In this document: piece by piece, positions 38,100 to 47,109 of the stretch
Layout of the letters: every line of letters begins with the position of its first letter
How positions within the stretch are numbered: the first letter of the stretch is position 1
Origin: Shigella phage ESh32
Sequence record: ON528742
Strand: one strand, 5' to 3'
Length of the DNA stretch: 64,000 bases
The notes under the pieces: model-generated
Database searches by the model: none
What the model saw: only the letters and a program-made list of their open reading frames with translations
What the model was told of the DNA's origin: nothing
Program-made: the position numbers and the translations under genes

Positions 38100-38104
38100 G
38101 TTGA

Positions 38105-38128
38105 GGACTCCTTCGGGAGTCCTTTTTT
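38105..38128 (+). terminator. rho-independent terminator (GGACTCC-UUCG-GGAGUCC + T6)
   Basis: Perfect stem and T-run read directly. Confidence 0.65.
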
Positions 38129-38209: not shown

Positions 38210-38542
38210 ATGAAAACGATTAATCTGAACGCTGCAGTTAAGACTAAATGCTTCAATGGTAAATATGATGAAACTATGTGGTTCTTAATGGCAGTTGAAG
38301 GTGATATTATTGAAGTAGAAACAACAGAAGGTATGGGAACAGATTTCACCTTTACAATTCAAGTTCATAATTTCTTTACTGGTTGGATTTATGAATTGAA
38401 TACAGTAATCGTTGGAAAAATTGAACAAAATGAATTAGGCGAATGGTATTATGTTACAGCTCGCCAACGTGCCGAACGTTTGATTGAGAAGATGAAAAAA
38501 GTTGGTAAACTTGACATGAAGCACTGGAAAGTAGTAAAATAA
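38210..38542 (+). CDS. hypothetical protein (110 aa)
   Basis: ORF track; SD AAGGAGAA. Confidence 0.55.
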   Translation: MKTINLNAAVKTKCFNGKYDETMWFLMAVEGDIIEVETTEGMGTDFTFTIQVHNFFTGWIYELNTVIVGKIEQNELGEWYYVTARQRAERLIEKMKKVGKLDMKHWKVVK

Positions 38543-38976: not shown

Positions 38977-39016
38977 AATAAAACAGGGGCTTCGGCCCCT
39001 TACTGAGGAAAATACT

Positions 39017-39501: not shown

Positions 39502-39704
39502 ATATAATTAATAAGATTTTTGGAATTCAGTACATTAAGGTCACATATAAAGTAACAGATAAAAATCCATATACTGATGAACATGAAGAACCACAAGTTA
39601 AGTCTATTATATTAGAAAAGGACCCTAACTGGCCAGTTGAATTTCGTCTTCCTTGCTATGGTCATTGGGCTGATGTTGAAATTATAAGTATTGAAAATGC
39701 CTGA
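39498..39704 (+). CDS. hypothetical protein (68 aa)
   Basis: ORF track; ATGA coupling. Confidence 0.45.
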   Translation: MNIINKIFGIQYIKVTYKVTDKNPYTDEHEEPQVKSIILEKDPNWPVEFRLPCYGHWADVEIISIENA

Positions 39705-40155
39705 GTTAGAGATTAGAAGCAATTTTAGATGGCCATCGTGTGCATTAAGTAATTTCGCCCAATGGCCTTTTGTTATGAATGGTATCCAATTTGGAGGTCT
39801 TGAAGGATTTCTCCAAGGGTGCAAGGTGAAAAATGTTGAGCAGCAAAGACGTATATTTGGGTTATCCGGACTTGCCGCCCAACAAGCTGGAAGGTCTTAT
39901 GCAAGAGCTCAGGACCGTGGGACCCTCTTCTGGCTTGGAGTTCCGTTTTCAAGATACTCACCAGCGTGGAAAGAGTTGTACACAAATGCATATTTTGAAG
40001 CAGCGATTCAAAACAAGGGCTTTCGTGATGCATTACTAGCCTCGAAAGGAAAAGTTTTGAAGCATAGCATGGCTAGTGGTCTAACAAAAGATGATACAAT
40101 ACTAACCGAAGCTGAATTTATTGATGTGTTAAACCTATTAAGAGACTCTCTATGA
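39691..40155 (+). CDS. NADAR-domain (YbiA/DUF1768-like) protein, 154 aa
   Basis: Motif ALSNFAQWPF...GIQFGGLEGFLQGCK resembles the YbiA/NADAR signature (SNF...W...E..FQ..K); locally GC-rich. Confidence 0.55.
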   Translation: MKMPELEIRSNFRWPSCALSNFAQWPFVMNGIQFGGLEGFLQGCKVKNVEQQRRIFGLSGLAAQQAGRSYARAQDRGTLFWLGVPFSRYSPAWKELYTNAYFEAAIQNKGFRDALLASKGKVLKHSMASGLTKDDTILTEAEFIDVLNLLRDSL

Positions 40156-40988
40156 AGCCTACTATTTTGACTGATATTGACGGGGTGTGTTTAAGCTGGC
40201 AATCGGGCCTTCCTTATTTTGCCCAAAAATATAATCTTCCGTTGGAACATATTTTAAAAATGATTCAGGACGAAAAATTTATTTCTCCTGGTAAGCTCTT
40301 TAATTGCGATGAAGAACTTGGTGTTAAATTAATCGAAAAGTATAATCGTTCAGATTTTATTCGTTACTTGTCTCCGTATAAAGATGCCCTGTGTGTAATT
40401 AACAAATTAAAAGAAGATTATAATTTTGTAGCTGTTACAGCATTGGGTGATTCTATTGACGCTCTGCTAAATCGTCAATTTAATTTGAATGCTCTTTTTC
40501 CTGGTGCCTTCTCAGAAGTATTGATGTGTGGTCATGATTCTTCAAAAGAAGAGTTGTTCAAAAAGGCAAAAGAGAAATATAACGTAATTTGTTATATTGA
40601 CGATCTCGCTCACCACTGCGATCACGCGAGTGAAATATTAAATGTTCCTGTTTATTGGATGGCTCGAGGGGAGCGTGACAGTATTCCAAAAACTGCGCAG
40701 CGAGTTTATACATGGAATGATGTAGAGAATAAGCTTTTTCCATCGAAGGAAAATAAAGAAAGTTTTGATAGTGAAAAAGCTATAAAAGATGTAATTGAAA
40801 AGATGATTAAAAACGATTCTTTTCCTTGGAACACTACCTGGAGAACTCCTGGATTTAATCCTTATAATCTATATCATCCATATCAGACGCATCCGTTTCA
40901 GACATGGAACTATATTAAACCCGGTGGCATAGAGTATTTGTATAATAGACCTACTAGTGGTGATAATATTTTCCAAGGAGCATTCTAA
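40152..40988 (+). CDS. HAD-superfamily hydrolase-like protein (278 aa)
   Basis: N-terminal ILTDIDGV (DxDG motif I of HAD phosphatases); ATGA-coupled to the NADAR ORF. Confidence 0.5.
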   Translation: MKPTILTDIDGVCLSWQSGLPYFAQKYNLPLEHILKMIQDEKFISPGKLFNCDEELGVKLIEKYNRSDFIRYLSPYKDALCVINKLKEDYNFVAVTALGDSIDALLNRQFNLNALFPGAFSEVLMCGHDSSKEELFKKAKEKYNVICYIDDLAHHCDHASEILNVPVYWMARGERDSIPKTAQRVYTWNDVENKLFPSKENKESFDSEKAIKDVIEKMIKNDSFPWNTTWRTPGFNPYNLYHPYQTHPFQTWNYIKPGGIEYLYNRPTSGDNIFQGAF

Positions 40989-42717: not shown

Positions 42718-42902
42718 AAGCTTACTTAGAAACAATTGTCATTGCTCAAAAAGAAGGTGGAGATGTTTCTACTTCTGTATCACAAGTCATTCTCGAATTT
42801 GTAGATGCATATGCTTACAATAAATTTACAGAAACATTTGATGCCTATGAAAAAGGACCAAAGTTTGAAATATATCGTACTCTCTTACCACTAGATTACT
42901 AA
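42714..42902 (+). CDS. hypothetical protein (62 aa)
   Basis: ORF track; ATGA coupling to ligase. Confidence 0.45.
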   Translation: MKAYLETIVIAQKEGGDVSTSVSQVILEFVDAYAYNKFTETFDAYEKGPKFEIYRTLLPLDY

Positions 42903-42924
42903 AGGCCTTCGGGCCTTTAATTTT
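42901..42924 (+). terminator. possible terminator (AAAGGCC-UUCG-GGCCUUU + A/U-rich tail)
   Basis: 7-bp stem, UUCG loop; tail AATTTTA is not a clean U-run. Confidence 0.45.
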
Positions 42925-42954
42925 ATAAATAGAATAAACACTAGAGAGGCTATG

Positions 42955-45048
42955 ATGGAACTTATTACAGAATTATTTGACGAAGATACTACTCTTCCGA
43001 TTACAAACTTAAATCCAAAGAAGAAAATACCACAAATTTTTTCAGTTCATGTTGATGATGCAATTGAACAACCAGGCTTTCGTTTATGTACATATACATC
43101 TGGAGGTGATACTAATCGCGATTTAAAAATGGGCGACAAAATGATGCACATTGTTCCTTTTACATTAACTGCTAAAGGTTCAATTGCTAAATTAAAAGGT
43201 CTTGGTCCAAGCCCAATTAATTATATCAATTCAGTTTTTACTGTTGCAATGCAAACAATGCGTCAATATAAAATTGATGCTTGTATGCTTCGTATTCTTA
43301 AGTCTAAAACTGCTGGCCAAGCTCGACAAATTCAAGTTATTGCTGATAGACTTATCCGTAGTCGTTCAGGTGGCAGATACGTCCTTCTTAAGGAACTCTG
43401 GGATTACGATAAAAAGTATGCATATATTCTTATACATCGTAAAAATGTATCACTAGAAGACATTCCAGGAGTTCCAGAAATTAGCACCGAGCTCTTTACT
43501 AAAGTTGAATCGAAGGTCGGTGATGTTTATATCAATAAAGATACTGGAGCTCAAGTAACCAAAAATGAGGCAATTGCTGCATCTATTGCACAAGAAAATG
43601 ATAAACGTTCTGACCAAGCCGTAATCATTAAAGTTAAAATTTCCCGTAGAGCAATTGCACAAAGTCAGTCATTGGAATCTTCTAGATTTGAAAGTGAATT
43701 ATTCCAGAAGTATGAATCTACAGCAGCTAATTTTAATAAACCAGCTACTGCACCTTTAATTCCCGAAGCAGAAGAAATGAAAATTGGAATTAATTCATTA
43801 GCTTCTAAAACAAAGGCAGCAAAAATTATTGCTGAAGGAACGGCAGATGAACTTCACTATGATTATAAATTCTTTCCAATGAGTCAAGTCGGTGAAGTTT
43901 CAGAAAAAATTAAAGAAGTAATTTTTAATGCAATTAAAAATGAACCAACTACTTCAATAAAATGTTTAGAGAAATACGCAGCAGCTGTAAATCAATTCTT
44001 TGAAGATTATAAAGATAAATGGCTTGCTAATCATAATAAAAATCGTAAAGGACAACCAGATGAAGTCTGGGAAGAAATAACTAAAAATTCCTGGAACGCA
44101 GCAAAAACTAAATTCCTCAAACGAATGATTTACAGTTTTTCTGGAATTGGTGCTGGTCCAATGATTGATATTACTATTGCCCGCGATGGTTCTAAATATA
44201 CTCCATCACAAAAGCGTGGCATTAGAGAATATTGCGGTTCAGGATATACTGACATCAATAATCTTCTTTTAGGTCGTTACAATCCAGAACGATATGATGT
44301 AATGAGTGAAAAAGAAATTGAATCTGCTATAAATAACTTAGATTCAGCTTTTGAAAATGGTGACCGCATACCGGAAGGCATCACAGTTTATCGTGCTCAA
44401 AGTATGACTGCTCCTATATATGAAGCGTTAGTTAAAAATAAAGTGTTCTACTTCAGAAATTTTGTATCTACTTCTTTAACTCCTATCATTTTTGGACGTT
44501 TTGGAATCACACATGCTGGTATTGGTCTTTTAGAACCAGAAGCTCGCAATGAATTAACAGTTGATAAAAATGAAGAAGGAATAACTATTAATCCAAACGA
44601 AATAAGAGCGTATAAAGAAAATCCTGAATACGTTAAAGTTCAAATAGGATGGGCAATTGATGGAGCTCATAAAGTTAATGTTGTATATCCAGGAAGTCTC
44701 GGAATAGCAACAGAAGCTGAAGTTATTCTACCACGCGGATTGATGGTCAAAGTTAATAAAATAACTGATGCTTCTAATAATGACGGAACAACATCTAATA
44801 ATACAAAACTCATTCAAGCTGAAGTTATGACCACGGAAGAGCTCACCGAATCGGTAATCTATGACGGAGACCATTTAATGGAAACTGGTGAATTGGTTGC
44901 AATGACAGGTGATATTGAAATAGAAGACAGAGTTGACTTTGCATCATTTGTTTCATCAAATGTTAAACAGAAAGTAGAATCATCTCTTGGAATTATTGCG
45001 TCTTGCATAGATATTACAAACATGCCTTACAAGTTCGTTCAAGGATAA
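42955..45048 (+). CDS. alt: Alt-family ADP-ribosyltransferase, paralog 1 (697 aa), with N-terminal capsid-targeting sequence
   Basis: N-terminus MELITELFD...NLNPKKKIPQIF; C-terminal ART motifs Y-R (VYRAQ), STS (FVSTSL), ExE (EAEVILPRG); SD GAGAGG. Confidence 0.8.
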   Translation: MELITELFDEDTTLPITNLNPKKKIPQIFSVHVDDAIEQPGFRLCTYTSGGDTNRDLKMGDKMMHIVPFTLTAKGSIAKLKGLGPSPINYINSVFTVAMQTMRQYKIDACMLRILKSKTAGQARQIQVIADRLIRSRSGGRYVLLKELWDYDKKYAYILIHRKNVSLEDIPGVPEISTELFTKVESKVGDVYINKDTGAQVTKNEAIAASIAQENDKRSDQAVIIKVKISRRAIAQSQSLESSRFESELFQKYESTAANFNKPATAPLIPEAEEMKIGINSLASKTKAAKIIAEGTADELHYDYKFFPMSQVGEVSEKIKEVIFNAIKNEPTTSIKCLEKYAAAVNQFFEDYKDKWLANHNKNRKGQPDEVWEEITKNSWNAAKTKFLKRMIYSFSGIGAGPMIDITIARDGSKYTPSQKRGIREYCGSGYTDINNLLLGRYNPERYDVMSEKEIESAINNLDSAFENGDRIPEGITVYRAQSMTAPIYEALVKNKVFYFRNFVSTSLTPIIFGRFGITHAGIGLLEPEARNELTVDKNEEGITINPNEIRAYKENPEYVKVQIGWAIDGAHKVNVVYPGSLGIATEAEVILPRGLMVKVNKITDASNNDGTTSNNTKLIQAEVMTTEELTESVIYDGDHLMETGELVAMTGDIEIEDRVDFASFVSSNVKQKVESSLGIIASCIDITNMPYKFVQG

Positions 45049-45051
45049 ATC

Positions 45052-47109
45052 ATGGAACTTATTACAGAATTATTTGACGGCGCTTCGGCGCCGGTTGTTA
45101 ACTTAAATCCTAAGCATAAAATACCACAAATTTTTGCTATTCAAGCCGGTGAAGAAAGCGTGCTTCCTGGATTTAGATTTTGTACATACACCTCTGGCGG
45201 TGATACGAATAAAAACGTTAAGCCAGGCGACAAAATGATGCATATCGTAATGATAGGCGTCAACGAGAAATTATCGTTAGTTAAGCTTAAAAACTTGGGT
45301 GGAAATCCAATTGGCGTCATTAATGCGGTTTTTGATACTGCTCTTCAAACAATGAAACAGTATAAAATTGATGCATGCCTATTCCGCGTACTAAAAAGTA
45401 AAACAAACGGCGCTGCTCGTCAAATGCAAGTTATTGCTGACCGTTTAGTACGTACTAAAGGAGCAGGTCGATATGTTCTTTTAAAGGAAATCTGGGACTA
45501 TGATAAGAAATATGCATATATTATGGTTTACCGTAAAAATGCCAATTTAGAAGACATTCCAGGTGTACCTCCTATTTCAACTGAGTTATTCACAAAAGTT
45601 GAATCAAAGGTTGGTGATGTTTATGTAGACGTTAAAACAGGTAATGCTGTTCCTAAAGCTGTCGCAGTTGCTGCTTCTATTGCTTTAGAAAATGATAAGC
45701 GTACGGATCAAGCTGTTATTCAGAAAACTAAAATTAGCCGTCGATTAGCAGCACAAGCTCAATATTCTACTGTTGATGCTTCACTTCAGGGTGATAGCTT
45801 CGCTGCTAAGAAATATCAAGAGTTTGAATCTAAAGTTCCGGTATATAAAGCAGAAGGACCAATGAACTCTGGCGTTATTCAGATTGGTTCAAACTTCAGC
45901 AAAGGAGCTATCGGTGGTATGAGAAGTGCTTCTCGTTTTAAATCTAACGATTATGAACTAGAAAGCTTCCGAAATCATATTGCATTAGCCCATGCACGTT
46001 TACGTGATCCGTCTATCAGACTGCAGAGCGATATAACACATCAAGGTTCTCAAGAATATTTAAAGAATAAAGAATTCTTTGATTATAAAACCGATAAAAT
46101 TTTGAGCGATCTCGCTGACATTAATATTTCTAATAGCTTTGATGTTATTAAGAAAATTATCAATGATTTAGTTAAAGGTTCTAAAGCCGCACCAGACGAA
46201 AAGGTAGCTATTATTCAATTTGTCATGAATGGCATTTATAAATTGATTAATGAATCTGCTGCTCAGGCATATGAATACGCAAGCACCGAAGTAACTCCAA
46301 AAGGATTAACTCAGGCTGAGTCTGATGTAATTGAAGATTATTGTGCAGATTCATATGTTGAAATGAACTCGTTCCTTTTAGGTAAACCGGATTCTACCCG
46401 TGAAGAATACATGGAACGAGCTATTAAACACATCGAGACAATGGATTCTGCATTCGCCAAAGGATCAGTTCTTCCTCCGGGAACTACGCTTTATCGTGGT
46501 CAAGAAGTTACTTTTAAAACTTTACGCCATAATATTGAAAATAAAATGTTCTATTTCAAGAACTTCGTATCAACATCGCTTAAACCAAATATCTTCGGTG
46601 AGCATGGTAAAAACTATATGGCTCTAGATGATTCCGGTGCAGTATTTTCTGGTGAAGGAGAAGGTTCCGTTGATGCCGAAGATTTAATGCATATGGGTAG
46701 TCATTCTGCATATGCTAATGAAGATGCTGAAACTAGTGTAGGTATGGTAATTAAAGGGGCTGAGCGAATCAAAGTTATCGTTCCAGGTCATTTATCAGGA
46801 TTTCCATCAGAAGCTGAAGTTATTCTACCGCGTGGAATTTTGTTGAAGATTAATAAAGTAAGCACGTACATGATGAAAGAAACTGCTTATAACAAGTATC
46901 TAATCGAAGGCACAATCGTTCCTCCTTCTGAACAATTAGAAGAATCGGTATATGATGGCGACCATCTAATGGAAACTGGTGAAGTTCGTCCAATGGCTGG
47001 GTTTAATCAATTCCTTGTAGAAGAATCAAAAGAAGAGGAAAACGAAGTTTCTCAAATCTTGGCTTCTTTGGTTAACATCAACGGAATGTCTAAAAAGTTC
47101 AAGATGTAG
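45052..47109 (+). CDS. Alt-family ADP-ribosyltransferase, paralog 2 (685 aa)
   Basis: Same N-terminal targeting sequence and first ~230 aa closely similar to paralog 1; ART motifs LYRGQ, FVSTSL, EAEVILPRG intact; central/C-terminal regions diverged. Confidence 0.75.
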   Translation: MELITELFDGASAPVVNLNPKHKIPQIFAIQAGEESVLPGFRFCTYTSGGDTNKNVKPGDKMMHIVMIGVNEKLSLVKLKNLGGNPIGVINAVFDTALQTMKQYKIDACLFRVLKSKTNGAARQMQVIADRLVRTKGAGRYVLLKEIWDYDKKYAYIMVYRKNANLEDIPGVPPISTELFTKVESKVGDVYVDVKTGNAVPKAVAVAASIALENDKRTDQAVIQKTKISRRLAAQAQYSTVDASLQGDSFAAKKYQEFESKVPVYKAEGPMNSGVIQIGSNFSKGAIGGMRSASRFKSNDYELESFRNHIALAHARLRDPSIRLQSDITHQGSQEYLKNKEFFDYKTDKILSDLADINISNSFDVIKKIINDLVKGSKAAPDEKVAIIQFVMNGIYKLINESAAQAYEYASTEVTPKGLTQAESDVIEDYCADSYVEMNSFLLGKPDSTREEYMERAIKHIETMDSAFAKGSVLPPGTTLYRGQEVTFKTLRHNIENKMFYFKNFVSTSLKPNIFGEHGKNYMALDDSGAVFSGEGEGSVDAEDLMHMGSHSAYANEDAETSVGMVIKGAERIKVIVPGHLSGFPSEAEVILPRGILLKINKVSTYMMKETAYNKYLIEGTIVPPSEQLEESVYDGDHLMETGEVRPMAGFNQFLVEESKEEENEVSQILASLVNINGMSKKFKM

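Follow-up and report, generated by a model that had tools for sequence, protein, structure and literature searches.

The 64,000-nucleotide window of Shigella phage ESh32 analyzed here (sequence record ON528742; one strand, 5' to 3') contains two open reading frames (ORFs) between positions 39,691 and 40,988 that very probably encode AdfN, a phage NADAR enzyme, and gp30.2, a HAD-fold protein, within a tightly packed operon. The stretch of ~1.9 kb around the pair is 99.8% identical in DNA sequence to Escherichia phage wV7 and 97–98% identical to RB51, RB14, RB18, and related phages, and nearly all of the 668 phage records that match it are Tequatrovirus-like. The two ORFs lie on one strand (39691/39697..40155 and 40152..40988). 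Because the annotated RB51 and T4 records have the order 30.4-30.3-30.2-30.1-30 (DNA ligase)-alt.1-alt in the corresponding stretch, the ORFs are, by sequence, T4 genes 30.3 and 30.2, and the window is that of a Tequatrovirus. The NADAR assignment, the activity, and the biological role of gp30.3 are already known from T4, and the window carries a near-identical allele.

gp30.3 as the probable ADP-ribosyl-guanine glycohydrolase AdfN

The gp30.3 protein of the window is equal in length to that of T4 and identical to it at 148 of 152 positions (97%). The two alleles are separated by 18 synonymous and 4 non-synonymous nucleotide differences, and the resulting substitutions relative to T4 (P2S, N27D, L114Q, and M124I) are all conservative. 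The initial annotation, made from the sequence alone, had recognized a YbiA/NADAR-like signature (ALSNFAQWPF...LEGFLQGCK) in this ORF. The signature is indeed present, and the assignment is borne out by a match to Pfam family PF08010 (Phage_30_3; E = 8e-70, 233.5 bits against a cut-off of 36), by retention of the catalytic residues, and by fold matches to YbiA and other NADARs. E36, K43, and H123 are invariant in a ten-sequence alignment of gp30.3 homologs; among 56 distant multi-domain homologs, E36 and K43 are likewise invariant and H123 is nearly so.

The AlphaFold2 (AF2) model of gp30.3 has a predicted local distance difference test (pLDDT) score of 81 and a predicted template modeling (pTM) score of 0.81. 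Its top three fold matches in the Protein Data Bank (PDB) are YbiA (2b3w), the NADAR of Geobacter lovleyi (8bat), which is a DarG1, and a Phytophthora NADAR bound to ADP-ribose (8bau), all with a probability of at least 0.97, and no other match has E < 3. Profiles and a fold search were required because direct sequence searches of the PDB with gp30.3 or gp30.2 gave noise or E = 1 only. When the gp30.3 family profile is compared with PDB sequences, YbiA is again the best match, with LSNFAxWPF/LEGFLQGxK aligned to FSNFAAWPI/SEHYFQAQK. The C-terminal helix (residues 138–151) is present in the model. Because the window allele is full length and this helix is intact, we assign the protein with high confidence to AdfN as an ortholog of the T4 enzyme.

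The biology of AdfN has been worked out in T4. Gene 30.3 was renamed adfN by Johannesman et al. 2025 (PMC11825919), who reported that T4 and T2 with adfN deleted cannot plaque on DarTG1 hosts, that this phenotype is specific to such hosts, and that adfN expression is sufficient to rescue RB69. The native RB69 allele is inactive; a frameshift has cost it the final 15 residues and with them the C-terminal helix. In the same study, E36A and K43A were found to impair T4 AdfN, and the purified protein stripped ADP-ribose from DarT1-modified DNA, with no binding to DarT1 detected (PMC11825919). The T4 enzyme hydrolyzes guanine-linked ADP-ribose on both DNA and RNA, but not ADP-ribose linked to thymidine or phosphate (PMC11125620, PMC11833690), and a last-strand histidine is the defining feature of the phage NADAR clade (Cihlova et al. 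2024, PMC11125620). In uninfected cells, AdfN(T4) fails to neutralize DarT1, and its rescue of phages outside the T-even group is only weak; this T-even restriction does not stem from DNA hypermodification, and the authors postulate a further T4 factor (PMC11825919). The AdfN proteins of Bas32 and Bas60 are factor-independent. The initial annotation had proposed a role in reversing guanine ADP-ribosylation, as an anti-toxin-type counter-defence against DarTG, and precisely this is published for the 97% identical T4 ortholog (PMC11825919, PMC11125620, PMC11833690).

From this orthology and the intact catalytic residues, we infer the same mechanism in the phage studied here. The DarT1 toxin of the host would ADP-ribosylate guanines of the phage DNA and thereby block replication, and AdfN would cut the N-glycosidic bond between guanine and ADP-ribose via E36, K43, and the clade-specific H123. 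ADP-ribose would be released and the DNA made replicable again, and AdfN would not bind the toxin.

When compared to known relatives, the window protein is closest to T4 AdfN, with which it shares orthology, gene order, E36/K43, H123, and the intact C-terminal helix, and from which it differs by the four conservative substitutions. DarG1, the antitoxin of DarTG1 (represented by the G. lovleyi NADAR, 8bat), has the same fold as gp30.3 (Foldseek probability 0.97), and DarG1 and AdfN have in common the chemistry on guanine-linked ADP-ribose and a non-binding, type IV style of neutralization. Unlike DarG1, however, gp30.3 of the window is an orphan, has no N-terminal extension, and carries His instead of Asp in the last strand, and AdfN cannot substitute for DarG1 in uninfected cells. 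Neither of the neighbors 30.4 and 30.2 has a Pfam match to an ADP-ribosyltransferase (ART) or DarT family, and judged from these neighboring sequences gp30.3 is an orphan antitoxin homolog with no DarT-like gene beside it. E. coli YbiA (2b3w) is the best structural match to gp30.3 (E = 5e-5, template modeling (TM) score 0.57) and shares the motif SNF...E-x3-Q-x2-K. The two proteins are, however, only 19% identical; the last strand of YbiA carries Glu, and YbiA serves a housekeeping function that concerns riboflavin intermediates.

gp30.2, a predicted HAD-fold phosphatase

The product of the second ORF had been described in the initial annotation as a DxDG-motif hydrolase, and this description holds: the motif reads DIDG at residues 8–11 and is followed by V, in line with the motif I consensus DxDx[TV], all four HAD motifs are kept (II, S/T; III, K/R; IV, DD), and the predicted structure has a HAD fold. 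Residues 1–195 are modeled with pLDDT > 90 as a Rossmannoid core with a cap, and the tail is modeled poorly. There are at least 100 homologs, found in T4-like phages of Enterobacteria, Acinetobacter, Aeromonas, Serratia, Vibrio, and Shewanella, which have in common a core of ~195 residues followed by a variable tail; the window protein belongs to phrog_420. The tail itself (residues ~200–278, 40750..40988) is predicted to be disordered, with a high content of Pro, Tyr, Trp, and Asn, and its length differs greatly from homolog to homolog. Near its C-terminal end, many homologs carry the motif G-(I/T)-E-Y-x(3-4)-P-T, which could be a docking peptide.

The likely nearest relatives of gp30.2 are the 5'(3')-deoxyribonucleotidases of the NT5C family, cdN and mdN (2jao, 2i7d, 3bwv). 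These enzymes likewise consist of a HAD core with a helical cap, and both they and gp30.2 have the extended motif I D-x-D-G-V-L-x-x-[FW]-[EQ]-S-G-L. NT5C structures give the best target-normalized TM scores for gp30.2 (0.63–0.70) as well as the best sequence-profile match, with cdN being the best profile match in the PDB (E = 0.019). An hhalign comparison of the gp30.2 family with the NT5C domain has a probability of 86% and E = 5e-6 and covers the N-terminal half only, while an hmmsearch with an NT5C-domain profile does not recover gp30.2. The differences are also substantial, as gp30.2 is 17–20% identical to NT5C enzymes, does not reach the Pfam NT5C model, and has an extra variable tail of ~80 residues. 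Among 36 homologs, the only Pfam matches are sub-threshold ones to Hydrolase (9/36), NT5C (5/36), and HAD_2 (4/36). Database names of gp30.2-type proteins are sporadic and include "HAD-superfamily hydrolase", "putative phosphatase", and "5'(3')-deoxyribonucleotidase". Two other identities, thiamine diphosphokinase (NCBIfam) and polynucleotide kinase (PHROG), were set aside, the matches being far below threshold. Our literature search returned no study of gp30.2 function, no assay of its nucleotidase activity, and no described link between NADAR and NT5C.

From the motifs and the model, we predict with confidence that gp30.2 is a HAD phosphohydrolase with a complete set of catalytic residues. 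By analogy, its substrate is probably nucleotide-like, and we regard the protein as a divergent relative of NT5C rather than a demonstrated member. In a Mg-dependent reaction, it would most likely dephosphorylate a nucleotide-like phosphomonoester, as suggested by its nearest relatives being 5'(3')-deoxyribonucleotidases.

Operon structure and sequence composition

The mechanical ORF of gene 30.3 begins at a TTG codon (39691) and would encode the 154 aa given in the initial annotation, whereas an ATG two codons on, at 39697, would yield 152 aa. Because RB51 and T4 are annotated with the ATG as the start of 30.3, and because the published numbering of E36 and K43 fits that start only, the true start is almost certainly ATG 39697 and not TTG 39691; the ORF stands, and its length is shortened by two residues. 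The two genes had also been presented as an ATGA-coupled pair. This overlap (40152–40155) is real, yet it is not peculiar to 30.3 and 30.2: seven junctions in a row, from 30.6 through 30.5, 30.4, 30.3, 30.2, 30.1, and 30 to alt.1, overlap by 1, 4, or 8 nt each. Shine-Dalgarno sites are weak before 30.3 and 30.2, while 30.1, 30, 30.4, and 30.5 are preceded by sites of the AAGGAG, AAGGA, or GAGG type. Given the poor sites at 30.3 and 30.2, translational coupling from 30.4 to 30.3 and from 30.3 to 30.2 is plausible, and each of the two genes would probably be translated through coupling to the gene upstream.

Both genes appear to lie inside an early-region operon extending from 30.7 to alt.1, with reading frames that overlap in series. 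The candidate boundaries of this unit are listed in Table 1 with the other features of the locus; promoter-like sites in total are no more numerous than expected from shuffled sequence. A GC-rich hairpin followed by a T-run is also found after 30.9 (38103..38124, + strand), and the same palindrome (GGGGCTTCGGCCCC) occurs between 30.7 and 30.6 (38985..39000, scored on the - strand). These two hairpins may split the early region into sub-operons.

Table 1. Features of the 30.3/30.2 locus in window coordinates, with the basis of each assignment.
Feature	Position	Strand	Basis
Gene 30.3 = adfN (anti-DarT factor NADAR), assigned as a gp30.3-clade NADAR ADP-ribosyl-guanine glycohydrolase, 152 aa	39697..40155	+	PF08010, T4 identity, AF2 fold; function published for T4 ortholog
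Catalytic motif E-G-F-L-Q-G-C-K, codons E36 (39802-39804) to K43 (39823-39825)	39802..39825	+	Homolog alignment, T4 mutants, YbiA alignment
Codon H123 (in LKHSM), His replacing last-strand Glu/Asp in phage (gp30.3-type) NADARs	40063..40065	+	Alignment; clade-defining per PMC11125620
Gene 30.2, 278 aa: predicted HAD-fold phosphatase-like core with helical C1 cap (residues 1-195) and variable, poorly predicted C-terminal tail (~200-278)	40152..40988	+	
HAD motif I, D8-I-D10-G11 (predicted nucleophile and acid/base aspartates)	40173..40184	+	D8, D10, G11 invariant in 36 homologs
HAD motif II, T96	40437..40439	+	Kept in at least 90% of 36 homologs, Ser in the rest
HAD motif III, K132	40545..40547	+	Invariant in 36 homologs
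HAD motif IV, D150-D151	40599..40604	+	Kept in at least 90% of 36 homologs
ATGCCTGA: overlap of 30.3 start and 30.4 stop, 8 nt; canonical Shine-Dalgarno absent upstream	39697..39704	+	Sequence read
ATGA: overlap of 30.2 start and 30.3 stop, 4 nt	40152..40155	+	Sequence read
Best sigma-70-like promoter match, upstream of 30.7 (11/12 positions); possible start of the 30.7-to-alt.1 unit	38511..38540	+	Consensus match only
Terminator-like GC hairpin then T-run between alt.1 and the first alt gene; would separate the operon from the ART genes	42900..42919	+	Consensus match

The pair had further been described as lying in a GC-elevated patch with both strands open, and a possible horizontal origin had been read into this. 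Elevated GC is observed for gene 30.3 (0.420 versus 0.360 for the window; z = 1.9, top 4.7% of equal-sized windows), which also has the highest GC at third codon positions in its neighborhood, but it is not observed for gene 30.2 (0.350, equal to background) or for the two genes taken as one segment (z = 0.68). Genes 31, rIII, and 30.9 have a GC content of 0.40–0.41, near that of 30.3. With a signal that is raised in 30.3 alone and comparable in these three genes, we judge GC to be a weak sign of recent horizontal transfer; in the literature, the gp30.3-type NADAR is argued to be an ancient co-option from DarG1-like antitoxins. The alternative frames are indeed relatively open, with 5.8 stops per 100 codons when the five frames other than that of 30.3 are read, versus 7–9 in most neighbors, but this is a by-product of composition.

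One alternative-frame ORF inside 30.3 (39833..40039, + strand) corresponds to 30.3', a historical gene annotated in T4. All 12 differences between the window and T4 in this interval are non-synonymous in the frame of 30.3', whereas 11 of the 12 are synonymous in the frame of 30.3, and the stop position of 30.3' differs, giving 68 aa in the window and 75 aa in T4. On the basis of this non-synonymous pattern and the shifted stop, we rejected the ORF as a gene. 30.3' is thus probably not a gene, and its annotation in T4 may deserve removal.

Several observations weigh against reading the locus as AdfN and a HAD-fold gp30.2 in one operon. The general NADAR model PF08719 is not matched by gp30.3 at E ≤ 0.1, and homologs of gp30.3 reach E = 1e-3 with this model, or ~1e-6 in 2 of 56 cases; membership in the NADAR superfamily rests instead on the fold, the motif, the sister family PF08010, and the literature. 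The function of AdfN is carried over to this phage from T4 by orthology. For gp30.2, no Pfam model (window protein, E ≤ 0.1) or NCBIfam model claims the protein above threshold, and the promoter and terminator assignments are consensus matches that occur at background frequency. In the profile searches proposed as a check in the initial annotation, the NADAR call is upheld by PF08010 and not by PF08719, and the HAD call is above threshold in neither Pfam nor NCBIfam.

Gene neighborhood and possible partners of AdfN

The two ART genes that the initial annotation had placed ~2 kb downstream are present as Alt-like genes at 42952..45048 and 45052..47109 (+ strand), with matches to PF03496 at E = 1e-37 and 4e-20, respectively, and the first begins 1,964 bases past the end of the 30.3/30.2 pair. 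They are arranged in tandem, 3 nt apart, and are 41% identical to each other, a duplication also seen in RB51; compared to the N-terminal half of T4 Alt, the first is 80% and the second 64% identical. Given that the NADAR and alt genes are close together, AdfN might be thought to reverse or regulate ADP-ribosylation that the phage itself introduces through Alt, and the proximity of ~2 kb would then be explained, but we consider this highly improbable. Alt modifies protein residues. The NADARs tested to date, including that of T4, act on guanine bases only and not on phosphate ends (PMC11125620, PMC11833690). Additionally, alt.1 and alt are separated by a terminator-like hairpin (42900–42919). 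In Apostate, CZ01, and Ah1, alt is encoded on the other strand; in phi-pp2 and KPV15, a large distance separates the NADAR gene from ligase and alt; and the phenotype of adfN deletion is confined to DarTG1 hosts. With enzyme specificity, the hairpin, and the non-conserved strand and position all against it, proximity to alt as a functional tie was rejected.

The initial annotation had also raised the possibility of an ADP-ribose processing module. The proposal stands for 30.3, while the case for 30.3 and 30.2 as one functional module is only suggestive. In a survey of loci fetched from GenBank phages and IMG/VR, gp30.2 is encoded beside or near the DNA ligase in Tequatrovirus, Apostate, Ah1, and vibriophage CZ01, even with the NADAR gene elsewhere. 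We lean slightly toward gp30.2 being independent of AdfN, with a role in DNA or nucleotide metabolism tied to DNA ligase and with its adjacency to 30.3 reflecting inherited gene order. It would then be a (deoxy)nucleoside-monophosphate phosphatase that tunes the pool of deoxynucleoside monophosphates, or a nucleic-acid end phosphatase that readies nicks for ligation. This is consistent with deoxyribonucleotidases being its closest relatives in both structure and sequence, with a weak PHROG match to the polynucleotide kinase/phosphatase family (E = 0.004), with the phage precedent of an NT5C-like dTMP phosphatase, and with the region being a string of overlapping genes of unrelated functions. 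However, there is no direct evidence for any substrate, T4 already possesses the 3'-phosphatase PseT, and an independent role leaves the recurrent adjacency and fusion of NADAR and NT5C unexplained.

Alternatively, gp30.2 could be the functional partner of AdfN, which we judge unlikely: it might be the potentiating factor without which AdfN(T4) is not fully active, or a downstream clean-up enzyme that dephosphorylates breakdown products of ADP-ribose or ADP-ribosylated or damaged mononucleotides. The pair would then be a module of two enzymes for ADP-ribose processing. AdfN(T4) works in T-even infections only, for which an extra T4 factor has been postulated, and ADP-ribose hydrolases have been suggested, in a general way, to be coupled to phosphatases, HAD 5'-nucleotidases among them. 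Genes 30.3 and 30.2 overlap in Tequatrovirus and Mosigvirus-like loci and are adjacent or overlapping in all close relatives; adjacency is also seen in Acinetobacter phage Apostate and in a Morganella-phage-like contig, and in Aeromonas phage Ah1 and one IMG/VR contig (L030) the two genes are no more than ~1 kb apart. In the KVP40-type vibriophage phi-pp2, the NADAR gene has been relocated between gp55 and gp47, and a bona fide NT5C (PF06941, E = 4e-11) follows 5 nt downstream. In viral contigs from gut metagenomes, a NADAR of the gp30.3 clade is fused to an NT5C domain with both active sites intact. A search with one such fusion gave 1,831 clusters at E ≤ 1e-3, with PF08010 and PF06941 together in all 120 of the best 120 and KptA/Tpt1 at the N-terminus in 16 of these. 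The fusion genes are located in ADP-ribose-processing islands, and their NT5C domain shows remote kinship to the gp30.2 family (hhalign 86%, E ~5e-6).

Against such a partnership, the NADAR gene of Krischvirus GEC-3S lies directly upstream of the ligase, and no ORF of the gp30.2 family or NT5C is found genome-wide, even at E ≤ 10, although the same profiles recover the window genes at E ~1e-101 and 1e-83. This negative whole-genome result weakens the notion of an obligate partnership between NADAR and gp30.2. In contig L027, too, the NADAR gene immediately precedes the ligase gene, and 30.2 is missing between them. The two genes are far apart in Klebsiella Jiaodavirus, where NADAR is found among tRNA genes, and ~100 kb apart in a second such phage; they are unlinked in Aeromonas phiAS4, and there is no gp30.2 within 5 kb of NADAR in Tulanevirus, a Ralstonia jumbo phage, and seven IMG/VR loci. 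KVP40-type phages appear to hold both a gp30.2 ortholog beside the ligase (CZ01) and an NT5C adjacent to NADAR (phi-pp2). If a single KVP40-type genome has both, the two HAD proteins are not equivalent; they were seen in separate genomes, CZ01 and phi-pp2. Moreover, of the 56 multi-domain representatives of the NADAR clade, a single one carries NT5C; the remaining partner domains (LRR, ASCH, lipase, LGT, and others) are scattered, and some may be fusions created by gene calling. AdfN is active on its own in vitro, ADP-ribose offers no phosphomonoester for direct attack by a HAD phosphatase, and ~100 other uncharacterized T4 genes are equally eligible as its factor. A broader proposal, which we hold to be quite unlikely, takes gp30.2 as the missing T-even factor and His-type NADARs with an NT5C-like HAD phosphatase as a two-enzyme unit whose genes are translationally coupled in T4, direct neighbors in KVP40-type phages, and joined into one in gut viral elements. 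Here, the HAD enzyme would either potentiate the NADAR or remove phosphate-bearing products of de-ADP-ribosylation.

The fusions of Phage_30_3 with NT5C, with or without KptA/Tpt1, are found in gut Bacteroidales-associated viral contigs (L033:3478-4440, P0183). They combine the same NADAR clade with a HAD nucleotidase-type domain and so form a fused counterpart of the NADAR-then-HAD gene order. In contrast to gp30.2, their HAD part is a canonical NT5C, to which gp30.2 is remotely related, and their genes are found in ADP-ribose/RNA-repair islands rather than by DNA ligase. Gut metagenomes contain these fusions in great abundance (1,831 clusters at 90% identity; L033:3478-4440, L032:4926-5969; proteins P0123-P0242), with some clusters labeled as Bacteroidaceae or Prevotellaceae metagenome-assembled genomes, and the architecture is not described in the literature we searched. 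The islands (L037:3054-11332, L039:2936-12355) contain an NMNAT-like protein with NADAR, a second NADAR, Nudix/NrtR, up to four ADP-ribosylglycohydrolase genes, and DSP-type phosphatases, and they adjoin RNA ligase, HD-kinase, and metallophosphatase genes on contigs of up to 317 kb; a contig of 495 kb is also listed.

Other arrangements of the NADAR gene were observed as well. It overlaps the start of the DNA ligase gene in GEC-3S (L006:3992-5954) and in an IMG/VR contig (L027:4908-6756), and linkage of NADAR with ligase is at least as widespread as linkage of NADAR with HAD. In Apostate, a putative ADP-ribose pyrophosphatase (nudE; L003:1921-2445) lies ~2.5 kb upstream of 30.3-30.2-ligase on the same strand, such that three ADP-ribose-related activities would be close together in the genus of this phage. 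Ah1 has a clear gp30.3 homolog (L009:2997-3515; E = 5e-44) with no coding sequence in the GenBank record, ~0.5 kb upstream of its annotated gp30.2.

AdfN, of which the window carries a near-identical allele, is the first reported lytic-phage antitoxin homolog used as an enzymatic counter-defence (published 2024–2025). Its neighbor gp30.2 is one of ~100 T4 genes without known function and can now be assigned as a predicted catalytically complete, nucleotidase-like HAD phosphatase. The recurrent adjacency and fusion of NADAR with an NT5C-type HAD domain supplies a candidate for the factor that AdfN is postulated to require in T-even phages and, if this is true, the two proteins would make up a two-component unit for the reversal of ADP-ribosylation.

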